DNA from: an uncultured Holophaga sp.
Lineage (GTDB): Bacteria > Acidobacteriota > Holophagae > Holophagales > Holophagaceae
Assembly (NCBI GenBank): GCA_963664825.1
Contig: OY761614.1
Span: 2,752,001-2,816,000, forward strand
Direction: 5' to 3'
DNA length: 64,000 nt
Position numbers: made by a program. Positions 27,001 to 36,000 of this stretch are shown here, piece by piece; position 1 is the stretch's first letter; each line of letters starts with the position of its first letter.

Positions 27001-30000
27001 CCGGGAGTGAATCCCGGCGTCCTTCGGGTGGGCCTCCAGGTATTTATGCCAGTAGAAGAGGCAGTTCTCGAGATCCTTCAGGCCGCGATAGGCATCGGCC
27101 AGGTGCAGCAGCAGGGGGCCGTGGCTGGGATCCAGCGCGAGGGCCTCCAGGTAGAAGGGCAGGGCCGCGGCAAAGGCGTGTGCCTTGCGGTGGGTTTCCC
27201 CAGTTCGGATAAGGCGCTGGATGGCAGTCTTGGGATTGTCCAGGAGGGGCTCCATCGCTAGGGTTCCGTTCGAGGTGTATGAAAAAAAACGCAAATAACT
27301 TGGTGACAACCGATGGGGGCGGTAAACTCCATCCAACTCCCCTAAGTCGTGGTGCCCGGTTGATTGTAAGGCCCAGAACCGCGACTTTTCATGACGGAAT
27401 GGCTGGAACCATGAAAAATCCAATCCCGTCCCATCACGCTCAGGCCGTTTCCACTCCTGGTCCGTCTTCGGATGCGCCCAGGAGCGGGATCGCGATCACG
27501 GTGCTAGTGGTGGAAGACGAACCCACCACGCGCAAACTCCTCCAGAAGAGCCTCGAAAAATCGGGGTTCCAGGTGCGAGTGGCCGAGGATGGGGAGACGG
27601 CCATCCAGATGTTCCAGCGGGAACCCTCCCAGGTCGTGGTCCTGGATATCATGCTGCCGGGCATGGACGGCTTCGAAGTCTGCCGCCGCATGCGGATGCA
27701 TCGGGAAGGCGCCGCCATTCTGATGCTTACGGCAAAACGTGAGGACGATGACAAGATCAATGGCCTTGATCTGGGCGCAGACGACTACATGGTGAAGCCC
27801 TTCAACCCCAGAGAGCTCGTGGCGCGCATCAACGCCATTCTGCGGAGATGCCTGCCGCGGGGGGGCTCTGCGGACTCGCTCGCGTTCAAGGATCTCCGCA
27901 TCGATTTCAGGGCCCAGAAGGCGTTCAAGGGGGGCACCGAATTGGACCTCACGCCTCGGGAATTCGCCCTGCTGGCCACCTTTCTCCAGAACCCTGGCAC
28001 GGTGCTCACGCGCGATGAGCTGAACGAGAGAATCTGGGGCAAGGATCATCACGGCTCTTCCAAGAGCCTGGATGTCTACATGCGCAAACTCCGCCAGAAG
28101 ACGGAGGAGGACCCCTCCCATCCCACACGGCTCAGGACCGCCTGGGGTGTGGGCTACATCTGCGAATAACGAGGAGCTTCCCGCGCTCAAGAAGGCCTCG
28201 ATAGCAGCCTCTTGGGGGTCCGGAACCCTTTGTTCATGGGATTGGAAATCGTGCTCGGGCATCCCACCGCAGGCCGATTTTTTAATAAATATTTACCAAA
28301 TCCCTGCTTGACCCATGCCGATGAAGAAGCCATTCTTGGGTTTTCACAGCACAATAGAGGGTTCACCCTCGAAACGTTGTCGGTAATACACAAGTCAATG
28401 CCTGTAGATACCACATACATATATGAATGTGGCAGATGTAGGTTTGTCCCTTTATCCCGGGGACCCCGATCGCCGGGGTTATTCGGGCCACTTAATATCG
28501 TTCGGACGAACATATTGTTCATTGTCCGGGCACTCGCTCAAGGAGTTACCATGCGTAACCTCATCACCCTCGCGCTCGTCGCCGCCACCCTCCCCATGAT
28601 GGCCGCCAATACCACGACCTCCGTCAAGACCTCCGCCACGGCTCCCGTCAAGGTGAAGATCGTGGCCCCCTGCCACATCGAAACCACCGGCACGCTGGAT
28701 TTCGGCACTGTCATGATGAACGAGTACTACCAAGACGGCGCGGTGGGCATCCTGCCCAAGACAACGGCTGGTGGCACTTCTCAGGTCGCTGCTGCTGGCG
28801 TATTCAACTGTGTGAACATGGCTAGCACGCAGTCTGTGGCCGAGTTCCATTATCGCCACGATGCGACCATGCCCGTCACCGTCACCATCGATGGCAACGT
28901 GATCAAGCCAGCAACGGGTGACATCATCAACCACGTTACTGATCACAAAGTCCACATGTCCAATGGACTCTATCTGATGCCCGCCACCGATCTGCCCTCC
29001 GATTCCTGCGGCCTGTTCACACCCATCGCTGGCGTCGCGGATCGTCATTTCGGCCTCGGTGGCGTCCTGTTCATTCCCAAGACCACCTTCGGAGCTCAGA
29101 CTGGCTCCGTCACCGTTACAATCGCTTACCTGTAGTCTGATCTTTTCCCAGTAATCCGCGAATGAAGGCCGCTCTATCCGGAGTGGCCTTCATTTCGTTT
29201 CTCACGGGTGCTCGACCATGATCCGCCGCATTCTGTTTTCCGTGCTTGCCATCGCCTTCGCCTTTGCGCAGGAAGTTGCTCCACCAGTGCCCCCTGCTCC
29301 TTTGGCTCCTCCTGTGGTGGCGACGGGGGCTGCTCCAGTGATCACGACGGAAAAACCGGGCAGCAATCTCTCCATATTCCCTACGCGACTGGTGCTGGAG
29401 GGGCGTTCACGCTCCGAGGAGATCGTGCTCCGCAATTCTGGAAAGGCGGCGGCCACCTACCGGATCCTGTTCAAGGAAATGGAGATGAACGAGAACGGCG
29501 AGATTCAGGAACGTCCGAGGAAGGAGGGTGAGATCACGGCGGCCGATCTCATCCGCTTCAGCCCCCGGCAGGTCGAACTTGCTCCCGGCGAGACGCAGAC
29601 GGTGCGCATCCAAGTACGCAAGCCCGAAGGGTTGGTGGATGGGGAATACCGTTCCCATCTACTCTTCCAAGCCGTCCCGGTGGCAGAACCCCCGGCCCCC
29701 CTCGGAGGTGAGGTCGAAAGGGCGCTCTCCGTGAAGATCACCACCCTCCTGGGGATGTCCATCCCCATCATCCTTCGCCATGGCGAGACCCAAGGGAAGC
29801 TTGCGATCTCCGAATTGCGCTTCTGGAGGCCCGGTCCCAAGGTGACGCCGGGTGCTCCTCCTGTCCTGAGCCTCCGAATGACGCGGGAGGGCAACCGCAG
29901 CCTCTCCGGGGCCTTCACCGCCGTGGTGGAATCCGGGGGAAAACTCAAGAAGGGGACCCTCCTCTGGGAATTGCCGGTGGTTCCCATCTACACCAGCATG

Positions 30001-33000: not shown

Positions 33001-36000
33001 CGGAGGAAAACCATGAACCGATCGCTTCTGTTCCGGATCATGTTCGGCGCACTGGCCTGTGCACCCGCATTCCCTCAGGCCAAGATGCTCCCACCCGAAA
33101 TTCAGATCATCCAGTCTATGAACTTTGCTGGGTTGCTGGTGAGCCCCTTGGGGGGTAGCATCACCCTGACTTCGGATGGTGCGCTCATCCCCGATGGTGA
33201 TGGCATCGTGCCAAGTTCCCAATCGACCTGCACCGAGGCTAGGTTCCGGCTCACCGGGCCTCCGGGGGCCACGTTCACCCTCCAGGTGGAACCCTCAACC
33301 CCCGTTCTCGTGGCTGCTGGGCGCTCTATTCGCCTGGCAGAATTTCACGCTTCTCTGCCATGGGCGCGAGGCACGGAGTTGCGAGGAACCTTCGATGCCA
33401 CAGGACAGGCCGAAGTTAAGCTCGGGGGCCGCCTCGATATACCCGCCGGAACCCCTCCTGGGCTCTATCGCGCGGCTCAGGTGAAGCTCCAACTCCAGGT
33501 TCCCGGCAGAGATGCGGCGAACCTGCCCTTCTTGATTTCTGCCCTGTTGCGGGCACCTTTATTCCTGACCTCCACAGGCACCTTGGATTTTGGAAGCATC
33601 ATCCCTGGCGACCAGATCGGGCGTTTCGATGTTTTGCCCTCAGGAGGCCATCAATCCCAGACCTCTGGACCGAGCCTATTCAGGGGTCTGCCTGCTCCTG
33701 CTTCTTTCCAACTCGATGGGCCCGTCGGCACGAGCTATTCCATTCAGCTGCCCAAGGGTGTTCAACTGCTGGGCCGCGGTCAATCACTTCGAGTTGAGAA
33801 CTTCACATGCAGCACGCCAATGAGCGGAGTCTTGCCTCCAGGTGGCCTCCGGTTCGGAGTCGGTGCCGGACTAGTCGTTCCTCCTGATCAGGTGCCAGGG
33901 GTTTATCGTAGTGTCTTTACGGTGACGGTGAATTACCTGTAATAAGATCAGGGGCCTCCACGGAGGCCCCTGATCTTATGGGGAACGATTCCAAATTGGG
34001 AACAGTTACTGGGTCGTGAGGGTGCCAATCTTGAGGTCTGGCAAGGGGCCGATTGTATTGGTGGTGCCGTGGCTCAGAATTTGAGATTTGGTCAGATCCG
34101 GGGTCAGGGTGATGACCGAGCCGATGGCTTGACCGGTTTCCAGATCCAGGGCGATCTGGAGCAGGGGGCCGTTCAGAGTCTTGGTGGAACCGACACCGCG
34201 CTCGGTCACCACTACTTGCAGGCAGCCGCCGCTGAGTTTGCCTTTCACGATGGCGTTGCTGGCGAAGACGTTGCCATTGGTCACCAGCGCGGTGCCAGAG
34301 ACATTGCCCCAGGTCGCCTTGGTCGTGTCCAGGTTCAGCGTAAGCACGACTCCGCTGCCCGTGACAGGGGTGACTGGGCCATAGAGGTCCAACACCAGGT
34401 GAGTGCCGGAAATACTGTTCTTCTTTAAACAGAAAGACGTAGCCGGGACGCCCGCAGGGTCGGTGTAGGCAATCACCGTAGCGATTGGCGTGGGAGGAGG
34501 TGTCGACTTGCTGCTGCCACCTCCGCAGGCTAGGAGATACAGCAAGGAGATCGAAGGAAAGGCGAGGATGCGAAGGCGCTGGGTCATGGGTTTCTCGATC
34601 AGAAGCCGAGGCTCTTGAGTAGCAGGTTGAGATCGGCTTCGCCGACGGTGGCATCTCCATTCAGGCGAGAACGGCTGGTCGTTGTGCCCCAGTCCAGCGC
34701 CAGGGTGAGGATATCCCTGAGATCGAAGACCGCATCCCCATTCACATCCAGCGTCTTGACTGTGAGGACCGAGGTGGCGGTCTTGGTGGGGTATAGAGAA
34801 TTGGTGAGGGTCACTGTGGCGCTGGTATCGGTGAGTTGATTGGCAAAGGGGGGGGCCGTGTATGTGTTACTGAGTCCTGAGTCGGCACTCAGTGAACCCG
34901 GGCCTGAAAGGCTCCATCGGATGGTTCCGTTGCTGGTGGTGCCCGCGAGGGCCAAGGCTGCACCGTAAACCAGGGTGGCGGTGGGATGATCCACAGAGAG
35001 GGCTATTGTGGTCGGCTCCACCAGGGTGAGCGTGGCCGTGCCTGGCACATTGGGAGTCTCCACGGGTGTGGCCGTCAGGGTATAGATCCCGGCCGTGTTG
35101 CTGGTCGTCAGTGTGGTTGCCACGCCACTGGCGGTCTGGGGAGCATTGAAACTGCCCCCGCCAGCGCTGATGGTCCAGTTGACCCTGTTATCACTCTGGA
35201 AGTTGGAAAGGGTCGCAGTGAAGGGCAGCAATGCGCCGATGAGGGCCGTGGTGCTCGCGGGCAGGATGGTGGCCGTGGTGTTTGTGGTCCAGGAAACGTT
35301 ATCCACCCAAGCGCCATCGTTATCGGGAGCGCTAGCAAGATCCTTGGCGTAAGTCCAACGAAGCAAATGCGAACCTGCAGGAATGTTAAAGGTCTGCTGG
35401 GCAAAGTCGATGGTACCGCTGATTTTTCCGATCAATCCTCCTCCATCGACATTTGCGCTCTTTCCATCCACGTTAAAGGTGAGAAAGTCATAGTCGAGTT
35501 CGGAGTTTACTTTCCAGTAGAACGTCAGGATGCCCGGTCCTGTGACTCGTGTCTGGAGGTAGGTGCGGCTGCTATTCGGAATGACCGCGCTCCGGGCGCA
35601 ACTGCCGCCCAGATGTGAGGTGCTGGTGGTGGCGGTCCAGGGGCCCAGACTCGTGAACGTAAGATTGGCATTATCCAGCACCGCACGATCGAAGACGGGC
35701 AGCGCAATAGCTAGCGGGGCACTGGAATCGGACCAAGCGCTCTCCATGGAAAGACCATTCAGAACCGTCACCCGAGCATAAAGGGGAACGCCATCCTGCA
35801 CGCCCAGATCGGTGAGAGTCTTGGTCAGCGCATTGAATATGCGGCCATTGAAAATATCGCAGCCACCCAGCGATGTGCCCACCTGAAGGTGGTAGCCGGA
35901 GATGCCGGAATCGAGATCTACCGCATTCCCTTGGTTCCAGGTGAAGGTCATGGTGTCTTGCACGGTGGAAGCCACGGGCGCACTGGGGCGTCCCGTTGGC

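Follow-up and report, generated by a model that had tools for sequence, protein, structure and literature searches.

Gene content of the locus

The whole stretch of DNA analysed here, a 64,000-nt window whose positions provide all coordinates below, comes from an uncultured Holophaga sp. (Holophagaceae, Acidobacteriota; GCA_963664825.1, contig OY761614.1 from 2,752,001). A preliminary description had placed an operon of four genes at 28551-33942, behind an OmpR-type regulator, and co-directional open reading frames were recovered at exactly these positions (Table 1). The genes g02411-g02414 follow the order pilin, chaperone, usher, two-domain subunit; all four proteins have a signal peptide, and NCBIfam gives a name to none of them. 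A Shine-Dalgarno sequence (AAGGAG) lies 7 nt ahead of the ATG of g02411, the start of g02414 overlaps the stop of g02413 by 4 nt (33013-33016), and the G+C content of the operon region is 0.54-0.61, compared to 0.64-0.68 in the DNA upstream.

Table 1 Features of the operon and its upstream regulator (window coordinates)
Feature	Position	Strand	Basis
OmpR/PhoB-type response regulator g02410	27279..28169	+	Response_reg, Trans_reg_C
Candidate major pilin g02411, 194 aa	28551..29135	+	DUF4402
GC-rich hairpin, 17 bp, U-rich tail	29159..29203	+	RNA fold
PapD-like periplasmic chaperone g02412, 305 aa	29218..30135	+	PapD_N below cut-off, hhalign
Outer-membrane usher g02413, 956 aa	30146..33016	+	Fold match, hhalign
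Two-domain subunit, candidate tip adhesin g02414, 309 aa	33013..33942	+	Two DUF4402 domains

The regulator matches the Pfam families Response_reg (113.4 bits, residues 75-185) and Trans_reg_C (87 bits), and its best NCBIfam matches (OmpR, RpaB and MtrA) are each under the cut-off. The listed frame carries ~70 extra N-terminal residues, and its true start may lie further downstream. Between the pilin and chaperone genes, RNA folding of 29126-29225 yields -35.2 kcal/mol (z -4.03; 0 of 200 shuffles as good), and a simple terminator scan did not call the hairpin contained within it. This hairpin resembles a partial terminator or an attenuator, through which pilin would be made in excess of the assembly proteins.

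Usher and chaperone

The proposal that g02413 is an usher outside the Pfam usher families was borne out by fold and by remote homology. No usher family matches it in Pfam at E≤1, the only match at that threshold being CarboxypepD_reg (17.3 bits, residues 821-863). When its structure model (37-row alignment, pLDDT 81.5, pTM 0.65) was compared to solved structures with Foldseek, ranks 1-17 were all FimD or PapC at 11-15% identity (best 3rfz_B, E 5.8e-27, 919 columns, 12% identity), and the first non-usher row followed at E 4.2e-9. Profile comparison by hhalign connected the g02413 family to 12 ushers from SCPU loci (97.4%, E 1.5e-11, 554 columns), which themselves carry PF00577 in 12/12 cases and PapC_C in 11/12; against one SCPU-locus usher the match (80%, E 1.4e-5) covers residues 248-431, including the inferred plug insert. 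Domain limits read from the secondary structure of the model suggest an N-terminal periplasmic domain (~34-151), a barrel (~193-685) with a plug-like insert (~266-344), followed by two beta-sandwich domains at the C-terminal side (~700-895) and, last, a disordered Pro-rich tail (898-956). Relatives of g02413 often end in a SPOR or LysM tail.

The chaperone g02412 comprises a signal peptide, a Pro-rich linker and two Ig-like domains, with the G1 donor strand at about 167-183. It had been called invisible to Pfam, which is true of g02412 itself by a small margin (PapD_N 22.2 bits, cut-off 23) and does not extend to its orthologues, 22 of which pass PapD_N among 29 loci. Its family aligns with the chaperones of 12 SCPU loci (hhalign 98.3%, E 2.4e-14, 202 columns); these all contain PapD_N (12/12), and their profile matches solved CsuC at E 7.9e-55. 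In the profile alignment, P116 corresponds to CsuC Pro59 (the superfamily-invariant proline), R145 to the non-classical anchor Arg89, and S181-I-P183 to Ser117-Ile-Pro119; roles for Pro59, Arg89 and Ser117/Pro119 are described in the available text of PMC4654587. Two archaic anchors are unmatched: Ser230 stands at the Arg174 position, and the conserved Tyr258 is two residues off Tyr196. Family-specific features include a 4-residue insert in G1 and an invariant Arg57. The retained proline and anchor arginine, together with the profile match, support the earlier reading of g02412 as a PapD-like periplasmic chaperone, and sequence comparison would make it one of non-classical (archaic-like) type.

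The predicted complex of g02412 with g02411 scored 0.78 (0.77-0.79; best of 3 controls 0.00), close to the 0.81 obtained previously. The complex score may partly reflect likeness to solved chaperone-pilin complexes of other families rather than binding by this particular pair. The complex-score mark was reached by 116/157 solved complexes and 2/215 mismatched pairs, figures that serve as a rough guide because own alignments were used. Runs had at least 86% of contacts in common, with partner pLDDT of at least 74. In the model, g02412 residues 174-182 pair with the last strand of g02411 (lowest-error pairs, g02412:g02411, include 177:188, 178:189, 179:190, 180:191, 181:192 and 182:193), and this predicted parallel pairing with the C-terminal strand has the geometry of donor-strand complementation.

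DUF4402 subunits

Both remaining proteins belong to DUF4402, a family not named in the literature searched: g02411 scores 28.7 bits (cut-off 25.2), and g02414 134.2 bits in two stretches. In the pilin candidate an N-terminal extension of alternating small and hydrophobic residues (~19-38) is followed by an L-x-F-G motif (F51), and the C-terminal strand closes with Y-L; its 37-row alignment shows no exception at F51 and conservation of at least 90% at G52, G181 and Y193. The fold match is as weak as first described. Its model (pLDDT 87.2) found no Foldseek match at E≤0.001, and the VIA ranks 1-11, although all chaperone-usher pilins or pilin domains, have Z values of 5.0-5.8, below the value of 8 under which, according to the tool, a match can reflect a common arrangement. 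Remote homology connects the DUF4402 pilin family to 22 SCPU pilins (hhalign 96.7%, E 4.2e-10, 154 columns). Tyr occupies the penultimate position in 31 of 34 pilins and in all 25 two-domain subunits (tips), and the distance from signal region to FG motif has a median of 28 residues in pilins vs 14 in tips, by a heuristic measure that mis-measured several rows. The candidate pilin role of g02411 is supported by SCPU-pilin homology, by the Tyr at the penultimate position and by the N-terminal extension, which g02414 is without.

The C-terminus of g02414 is likewise Y-L, and the protein occupies the place of the two-domain SCPU subunit in SCPU loci. A two-domain subunit without N-terminal extension recurs in 25/33 related loci, 20 times downstream of the usher and 5 times upstream. 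Two DUF4402 domains and no donor extension agree with its earlier description as a tip subunit, and by analogy g02414 is a candidate adhesin at the fibre tip.

Co-occurrence across genomes

The preliminary description had left open whether DUF4402 and this usher co-occur elsewhere, and the association proved near perfect. DUF4402 over cut-off and a full-length usher match each occur in 15 of 301 Acidobacteriota genomes, and these are the same 15, always with both on one contig and within about 10 kb. A second phylum, sampled with 301 genomes, has 5 further DUF4402 genomes, and the usher is adjacent in 4 of them; the fifth has two DUF4402 genes beside a PapD_N-like gene and a gene for an 814-aa, more diverged, outer-membrane usher-like protein. 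Over the related loci, DUF4402 adjoins an usher homologue in 31/33 and PapD_N (E≤0.01) in 25/29. Orthologous operons are conserved across at least two phyla. The operon is dispensable: the single genome of the same genus in the sample lacks it, as do 13 of the 22 from the same family.

Relationship to known chaperone-usher systems

Fold, remote homology, the predicted complex and co-occurrence agree with the chaperone-usher assignment of all four genes, and we consider it highly probable that the operon is a complete chaperone-usher fibre machine, on a deeply diverged branch that is kin to the archaic (sigma) pathway. The system had been presented as unrecognised, which is correct insofar as it is unannotated; it is not unrelated, its sequence profiles indicating a deep sister, with the same gene order, of the archaic pili built from SCPU-type pilins, such as Csu (Acinetobacter baumannii) and CupE (Pseudomonas aeruginosa), and not a stand-alone invention. 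The archaic systems are those reported across a wide range of phyla in the available text of PMC9452303.

Likeness to the classical type 1 (FimC/FimD/FimA/FimH) and P (PapD/PapC/PapA/PapG) pili of E. coli lies in an usher model that spans the whole of FimD and PapC, in PapG, PapE, FimA and PapF domains among the best fold rows of g02411, and in the parallel strand complementation of the predicted complex. Classical subunits are marked by Tyr as the penultimate residue and by a Gly ~13-14 positions from the C-terminus. Unlike classical chaperones, g02412 has its carboxylate anchor aligned to the non-classical Arg of strand F1, not to the classical Arg/Lys pair, and, as far as the available text of PMC9452303 goes, classical systems are reported only in beta- and gamma-proteobacteria, whereas this operon is acidobacterial. 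The same text confines alternative (alpha) systems to proteobacteria. With these pili, CFA/I (CfaA/CfaB/CfaC/CfaE) and ECP (EcpB), the operon has in common the Arg89-type anchor, register-shifted complementation and a chaperone domain 2 Tyr shifted by two residues as in CfaA-like chaperones (available text of PMC4654587). Alpha subunit families differ, and the alpha likeness comes from that description, from fold rows of g02411 (CfaE/CfaB pilin domains, Z 5.4-5.5) and from one sub-threshold CooC_C match (18.7 bits) in a more diverged usher-like protein of genome G446. Among solved structures, sequence-profile searches with the usher, chaperone and pilin families found no chaperone-usher protein.

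The closeness to archaic pili invites the reading that this is an ordinary sigma member, its parts just under database thresholds, with no separate branch worth naming. All three parts are remote homologues of SCPU-locus parts (hhalign 96.7-98.3%), 11/12 SCPU loci fetched share the gene order with its two-domain last subunit, the chaperone retains the CsuC proline, arginine and S-I-P motif, the pilins share the x-F-G motif and a C-terminal G-x-Y...V-T-V-x-Y strand, and one SCPU protein (53.4 bits; G354:C6) also scores sub-threshold for DUF4402 (21.9 bits). We nevertheless regard this reading as improbable. Neither the Usher model nor the SCPU model of Pfam scores the proteins of this operon: PF00577 passes in 0/48 sampled representatives of the usher family and in none of the 15 Acidobacteriota genomes with this usher, and SCPU found no match in 5 genomes tested, this one included. 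DUF4402 pilins do not conserve the cysteine pair (C41 and C71 in the SCPU-pilin alignment) that is invariant in archaic pilins; g02413-type ushers are ~100-150 aa longer than SCPU-locus ushers and have a CarboxypepD_reg/SdrD_B-like last domain instead of PapC_C; and the chaperones differ in the G1 insert, the missing Arg at the CsuC Arg174 position and the invariant Arg57, which has no counterpart in the SCPU-locus consensus. The usher family alone numbers 9724 cluster representatives, 2979 of them at E≤1e-30.

Two further explanations concern the product rather than the ancestry. Exported DUF4402 subunits might form a coat, an amorphous polyadhesin or a capsule-like layer instead of a tipped pilus, for which Caf1 and Myxococcus spore coat protein U are models. 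The system is known here from genes and models, from which a fibre shape is extrapolated; in three loci (L023, L030 and L031) there are several DUF4402 genes of one domain each, with no two-domain gene downstream, and one 0.9-Mb genome holds 32 DUF4402 matches and only 2 ushers. We think such a product unlikely, given that the extension-less two-domain subunit, here and in most related loci, reproduces the architecture known from tipped Csu-type pili and that a hairpin behind g02411 is in keeping with a major rod subunit. Silence or decay of the operon, as an accessory island without present function, seems very improbable: the patchy distribution even inside genus and family and the lowered G+C would suit it, but four intact frames with conserved motifs, translational coupling of usher and tip, a good ribosome-binding site on the pilin and retention over at least two phyla all speak against decay.

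Proposed assembly route

By analogy with known pili, a surface fibre assembled along the chaperone-usher route is the most likely product of the four-gene operon. All four proteins would be exported by Sec, and g02412 would cap each DUF4402 subunit in the periplasm, its G1 strand (~170-182, with the archaic-type S-I-P motif at its end) and A1 strand (48-57) entering the groove next to the last strand of the subunit while Arg145 holds the subunit C-terminus. The chaperone-subunit complex would then dock on g02413, a putative gated beta-barrel with plug. Because it has no donor extension, g02414 would enter the usher first and end at the tip; g02411 copies would follow, the N-terminal extension of each displacing the chaperone strand of the previous subunit (donor-strand exchange), and the fibre would therefore grow from its base through the pore, with the hairpin keeping pilin in excess. 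On this reading DUF4402, held in databases as a family of unknown function, would supply subunits of a chaperone-usher route whose usher the standard usher model misses. The OmpR-type g02410 is the likely transcriptional regulator of the operon and probably switches it; a response regulator is found at the same upstream position in two related loci (L008 and L013).

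Four genes for a probable chaperone-usher fibre machine

The chaperone-usher pathway is textbook biology. We consider it very probable that the four genes g02411-g02414 encode such a machine with DUF4402 subunits, the fibre itself being putative; this reading, already put forward in the preliminary description, is supported by the fold of the usher, by profile homology and by genomic co-occurrence. The mechanism itself is already known. The four co-directional open reading frames lie downstream of a response-regulator frame, at exactly the coordinates first assigned to them (Table).

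AAGGAG forms the ribosome-binding site of the pilin gene g02411, and the stop of g02413 and the start of g02414 share a four-base overlap. Between the pilin and chaperone genes lies a hairpin, and the 100-nt stretch that bears it (-35.2 kcal/mol, z -4.03) is equalled in folding by 0 of 200 shuffles; it looks like a partial terminator, one that would set the ratio of pilin to machinery. Consensus scans did not rise above shuffles either for promoters (1 found versus 2.3 expected) or for terminators (8 found versus 6.8 expected). The window's own genome (G000) is one 3.47-Mb contig with a single copy of the system, and G+C is 0.54-0.61 across the operon's stretch versus 0.64-0.68 in the DNA upstream of 26500. 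Two genes on the opposite strand, for a secreted metalloprotease and a protein without family, converge on the operon (Table). A scan of 20000-40000 against Rfam at E≤1 revealed no c-di-GMP riboswitch and gave as its sole match a tRNA-like element at 38055-38124 (-), which with 25.5 bits (E 0.17) stays under the gathering score of 29.

Table. Features of the operon, its surroundings and the usher g02413 (nt, position in the window; aa, residue of g02413)
Feature	Position	Strand	Details
Response-regulator ORF, upstream of four-gene operon	27279-28169 nt		
g02411, DUF4402	28551-29135 nt		194 aa
Hairpin between pilin and chaperone genes	29159-29203 nt		17-bp stem and U-rich tail
g02412, PapD-like	29218-30135 nt		305 aa
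g02413, usher	30146-33016 nt		956 aa
g02414, two DUF4402 domains	33013-33942 nt		309 aa
Protein without family	34006-34587 nt	-	193 aa; lipoprotein-like signal (LLAC)
Secreted M6-family metalloprotease	34599-37613 nt	-	1004 aa; TIGR03296 149.6 bits, Peptidase_M6 32.5 bits; weak dockerin-like end
g02413, N-terminal beta domain	about 34-151 aa		DSSP list of model
g02413, about 24 long strands	193-685 aa		DSSP list of model
g02413, six-strand insert	266-344 aa		DSSP list of model
g02413, two C-terminal beta-sandwich domains	up to about 895 aa		DSSP list of model
g02413, disordered Pro-rich tail	898-956 aa		

An usher fold that sequence models pass over

Against the Pfam Usher family PF00577 (cut-off 27.1 bits), g02413 gives no match at E≤1; its sole Pfam signal is a weak CarboxypepD_reg near the C-terminus, and NCBIfam has no name for it or for g02411, g02412 and g02414. 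Yet when an AlphaFold2 model built from a 37-row usher alignment (A1; pLDDT 81.5, pTM 0.65) was compared with the PDB by Foldseek, ranks 1-17 were all FimD/PapC ushers, aligned over up to 950 columns and led by 3rfz_B (E 5.8e-27, 919 columns, 12% identity), with the first non-usher at E 4.2e-9. A TonB-dependent or LptD-like barrel was rejected as an identity for g02413, such structures appearing from rank 29 onwards at E of at least 1.8e-6, against 5.8e-27 for ushers. The model predicts a gated barrel usher with a plug insert and periplasmic N- and C-terminal domains, the domain limits and strand count being a reading of the DSSP list and not of the 3D model.

Searched against solved structures, the A1 profile recovered no usher and only an SdrD domain (E 4e-4); as first described, the usher escapes sequence methods used by themselves. 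Homology to known ushers was recovered by hhalign against ushers from 12 archaic (sigma) Csu/CupE-type loci with SCPU pilins, hereafter SCPU loci, in which PF00577 is found in 12/12 and PapC_C in 11/12: the alignment scored 97.4% (E 1.5e-11) over 554 columns that span barrel, plug and C-terminal domains. The A1 profile also matched a canonical usher frame in one genome (E 3.9e-7).

The family behind the profile is large: the number of cluster representatives is 9724 at E≤0.001, falling to 5504 at 1e-10 and to 2979 at 1e-30. All of the best 150 are full length, with E of 1.2e-184 or lower. When every third of these 150 was scanned against Pfam, PF00577 exceeded its cut-off in 0/48, with one sub-threshold match at 22.2 bits. 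SPOR matches the C-terminus of 8 of the 48 at E≤0.01 (7 over cut-off), and Cu_amine_oxidN1 matches the N-terminal domain weakly in 12 (one over cut-off). The usher g02413 ends in a disordered Pro-rich tail, whereas many of its relatives end in the peptidoglycan-binding SPOR domain and one of the 48 in LysM; relatives with tail or N-terminal domains of note are P0069, P0078, P0084, P0150, P0153, P0174, P0189 and P0108. In the Atlas the usher has as its neighbours 'hypothetical' clusters of Pseudomonadota, Fusobacteriota and Cyanobacteriota, and ushers of this kind currently bear the labels "hypothetical" or "carboxypeptidase regulatory-like domain protein".

A PapD-like chaperone with non-classical marks

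Beside the usher is encoded a periplasmic two-domain PapD-like chaperone, g02412. Its PapD_N match (PF00345) of 22.2 bits narrowly misses the cut-off of 23, and of 29 orthologous loci 25 show the family at E≤0.01 and 22 exceed its cut-off (23.1-32.2 bits), so that to describe this chaperone as invisible to Pfam goes too far. Chaperones of the SCPU loci carry PapD_N in 12/12, and the match of their profile to solved CsuC (E 7.9e-55) identifies them as archaic (sigma) chaperones; a 28-row alignment of g02412-type chaperones (A3) aligns with them at 98.3% in hhalign (E 2.4e-14, 202 columns, both domains). Against solved structures directly, the A3 profile returned nothing beyond WxLIP (E 0.15) and, as far as E 10, noise from integrins.

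Several residues can be placed on CsuC. P116 of g02412 aligns with CsuC Pro59, whose position is described by Pakharukova et al. 2015 (PMC4654587) as the sole residue invariant across the chaperone superfamily. R145, conserved in at least 90% of A3, aligns with the Y-R of the SCPU-locus consensus, equivalent to CsuC Tyr88-Arg89; according to the same source (PMC4654587), Arg89 lies in strand F of domain 1, anchors the C-terminal carboxylate of the subunit and is typical of non-classical chaperones. By these alignments, g02412 keeps the conserved strand-F Arg anchor of non-classical (archaic/alternative) chaperones. M180-S181-I182-P183, where the G1 donor strand ends, corresponds to CsuC Tyr116-Ser117-Ile118-Pro119. 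In a stretch of the alignment with an 11-residue gap, Y258 (at least 90% conserved) falls two residues off the CsuC Tyr196 column, and the CsuC Arg174 column holds Ser230 in g02412, with an invariant Arg223 and a consensus Arg227 nearby. All 28 A3 chaperones share an invariant Arg57, which belongs to the P-x-R motif of their first strand; the column aligned to it is variable among the 12 SCPU-locus chaperones, where it has no consensus counterpart. Classical chaperones carry an anchor Arg early in strand A1, of which Arg57 may be a counterpart.

Residues 44-305 of g02412 and 19-194 of g02411, folded together each with its own alignment, gave a complex score of 0.78 (three runs, 0.77-0.79), whereas no control of the three scored above 0.00. 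Among solved complexes 116 of 157 attain the mark for this score, as do 2 of 215 mismatched pairs; the counts are approximate here, as own alignments were used. The runs have at least 86% of contacts in common, with a partner pLDDT of at least 74. The lowest-error contacts (177:188, 178:189 ... 182:193) set chaperone strand G1 parallel to the last strand of the pilin, and further contacts involve chaperone residues 48-57 and 252-256; the predicted geometry is that of donor-strand complementation. Since complexes of other families have been solved, the score shows likeness and is no proof of binding.

DUF4402 subunits as remote relatives of archaic pilins

DUF4402 (PF14352, cut-off 25.2 bits) matches g02411 with 28.7 bits and g02414 with 134.2 bits over two stretches, and a scan of the whole genome recovered both subunits as well. 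SCPU (PF05229, cut-off 22.4 bits) gave no match to either at E≤1 and none in G000. A word-indexed homologue search with the pilin returned only 3 proteins, and pilin alignments were therefore built from loci found through the usher. In the resulting 37 rows (A2), a signal peptide is followed by an alternating small/hydrophobic stretch, an invariant Phe stands in an L-x-F-G motif, and a Gly is conserved 13 residues before the end; the penultimate residue is Tyr in 31/34 pilins and in 25/25 two-domain subunits.

Structural comparison of the g02411 model (pLDDT 87.2) yielded nothing at E≤0.001 in Foldseek, although Fim, Pap and Caf1 subunits fill its high-probability rows, and a VIA search placed chaperone-usher pilins or pilin domains, the CsuE pilin domain included, at ranks 1-11 with weak scores (Z 5.0-5.8). 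These values lie below the decisive range, and the caution first attached to the pilin fold match is retained. The A2 profile drew only claudin noise from solved structures. Aligned by hhalign with 22 SCPU pilins (A4), it reached 96.7% (E 4.2e-10) over 154 columns, end to end, which is stronger evidence than the fold and supersedes the 1.4% of a comparison with a single weak SCPU-like protein. Among the named clusters of the language-model Atlas outside DUF4402, those with SCPU lie closest (score 0.90), which serves as a lead only. Cysteines C41 and C71 are invariant in the 22 SCPU pilins, an invariant pair also being ascribed to archaic pilin domains in PMC4654587; the 37 DUF4402-type pilins have no conserved cysteine column.

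The distance from signal-peptide core to F-G motif has a median of 28 residues in pilins (30/34 measurable) versus 14 in two-domain subunits (22/25 measurable), by a simple and indicative measure in which several rows are mis-measured. These medians would fit an N-terminal donor extension carried by the polymerising subunits and absent from a tip subunit that is first in.

Linkage and distribution of DUF4402 and usher genes

Co-occurrence of DUF4402 with the usher, left open in the preliminary description, was found in two phyla and at most loci. An A1 scan of species-representative genomes yielded 35 loci, and the flanks of 33 (145 ORFs) were scanned against Pfam, L001 and L034 being excluded as fragments with no usable flanks. 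DUF4402 adjoins the usher homologue in 31/33, the exceptions being L026 and L027. Of the 33 loci, 20 have the two-domain subunit downstream of the usher and 5 have it ahead of the pilin.

Among 301 Acidobacteriota genomes, DUF4402 exceeds its cut-off in 15, and A1 matches at full length, with E not above 3.2e-178, in 15; they are the same 15 genomes, and the two genes always share one contig, within about 10 kb. Another 51 A1 matches were rejected as ushers, being weak and covering only profile positions 695-900, and are read as a probable shared CarboxypepD_reg-like domain. The canonical usher PF00577 is found in 10/301 genomes versus 15/301 for the DUF4402-type system, in none of the 15 A1-usher genomes and in none of the window's family, so that the DUF4402 type is the sole one seen in Holophagaceae: same-family genomes have PF00577 in 0/22, as does G000, and the A1 usher in 9/22 plus G000. 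The operon is accessory, being absent from the only same-genus genome sampled and from 13/22 same-family genomes; G169, G052 and G089 are among the genomes concerned.

A second sample comprised 301 genomes from the same phylum as G301, which is a 0.9-Mb genome recorded as an Alphaproteobacteria MAG and holds L026; DUF4402 exceeds its cut-off in 6 of the 301 and SCPU in 34. Of the 5 DUF4402 genomes besides G301, 4 have an A1-type usher directly adjacent.

Relation to archaic (sigma) pili

Pakharukova et al. 2022 (PMC9452303) distinguish three groups of chaperone-usher systems, the alternative (alpha), the classical (beta, gamma, kappa, pi) and the archaic (sigma), of which only the archaic spans many phyla. 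Archaic loci, like the window's operon, encode single-domain pilin(s), a chaperone, an usher and a subunit with two domains of the pilin family, and the order pilin, chaperone, usher, two-domain subunit is found in 11/12 SCPU loci (L081-L088, L090-L092); the deviating L089 has an ORF of 1109 aa in the usher position followed by one of 157 aa. The non-classical marks of g02412 are a further likeness. On the side of difference, the operon fails the Usher and SCPU family tests and, narrowly, that of PapD_N, its DUF4402 pilins lack the archaic cysteine pair, and the last domain of its usher is of another Pfam type. Because of the failed family tests, the missing cysteines and the other last domain, we do not file the operon as a member of the sigma family; by sequence it is a remote sister of sigma pili, and it would work like the archaic group. 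What had been called an unrecognised system is unannotated by the Usher and SCPU models but not an unrelated one.

With slightly more doubt than confidence, we propose that DUF4402-type operons form a seventh major chaperone-usher clade outside alpha, beta, gamma, kappa, pi and sigma. Such a clade would be set apart by an usher family with thousands of clusters that none of the libraries tried annotates, by DUF4402 as a pilin family peculiar to it, by a chaperone joining a non-classical Arg anchor to an extra invariant Arg in strand A1, and by SPOR or LysM tails that would often tether its ushers to peptidoglycan. If this is true, surveys that rely on the Usher model count too few chaperone-usher pili outside proteobacteria. 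PF00577-based searches have a blind spot in that they would score Holophagaceae as lacking such pili. DUF4402, an uncharacterised Pfam family, gains a testable function as fibre subunit of a chaperone-usher machine, and a large unannotated family of outer-membrane ushers is exposed. By mixing features of different pathway types, g02412 bears on the evolution of donor-strand complementation and of the carboxylate anchor.

The searched literature, with subscription journals outside its coverage, yielded no mention of DUF4402 or PF14352. Titles and abstracts of the papers listed for chaperone-usher and Acidobacteria revealed no such system there, a search for ushers in Geothrix found only unrelated work, and chaperone-usher combined with domain of unknown function and Foldseek led only to work on hypothetical proteins of E. 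coli K-12.

Divergent loci in other genomes

The fifth DUF4402 genome of the second phylum sample (G446) carries, at L049 (G446:C9:44000-56000; ORFs 2155-6201, minus strand), a pair of short DUF4402 genes together with a PapD_N-like gene of 229 aa (18.7 bits) and an outer-membrane gene of 814 aa, which matches CarboxypepD_reg at 39.3 bits and, below threshold, CooC_C at 18.7 bits. The 814-aa gene is detected neither by the A1 profile nor by PF00577, and hhalign gives the usher profile a probability of 1.4% against this usher-like protein; the locus may be a still more diverged variant of the DUF4402 type. G301 has 32 DUF4402 matches scattered across numerous contigs, with 8 on C18 alone (for example, G301:C18:1224-13077), but only 2 A1-type ushers; this excess may represent an orphan expansion of pilins, subunit variation or a second role of DUF4402, all three being possible.

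Gene orientation departs from the co-directional arrangement seen elsewhere at L050 (G294:C7:1141292-1145412), where three DUF4402 genes (+) converge on the usher (-). At L048 (G422:C8:246000-254500), a canonical cluster lies behind its own two-component pair. It has matches to PapD_N (34.1 bits) and Usher (42.3 bits) and two further ORFs, of 286 aa and of 168 aa, the latter with weak SCPU (13.7 bits); the same genome also has a DUF4402-type operon, and both types of system can therefore coexist.
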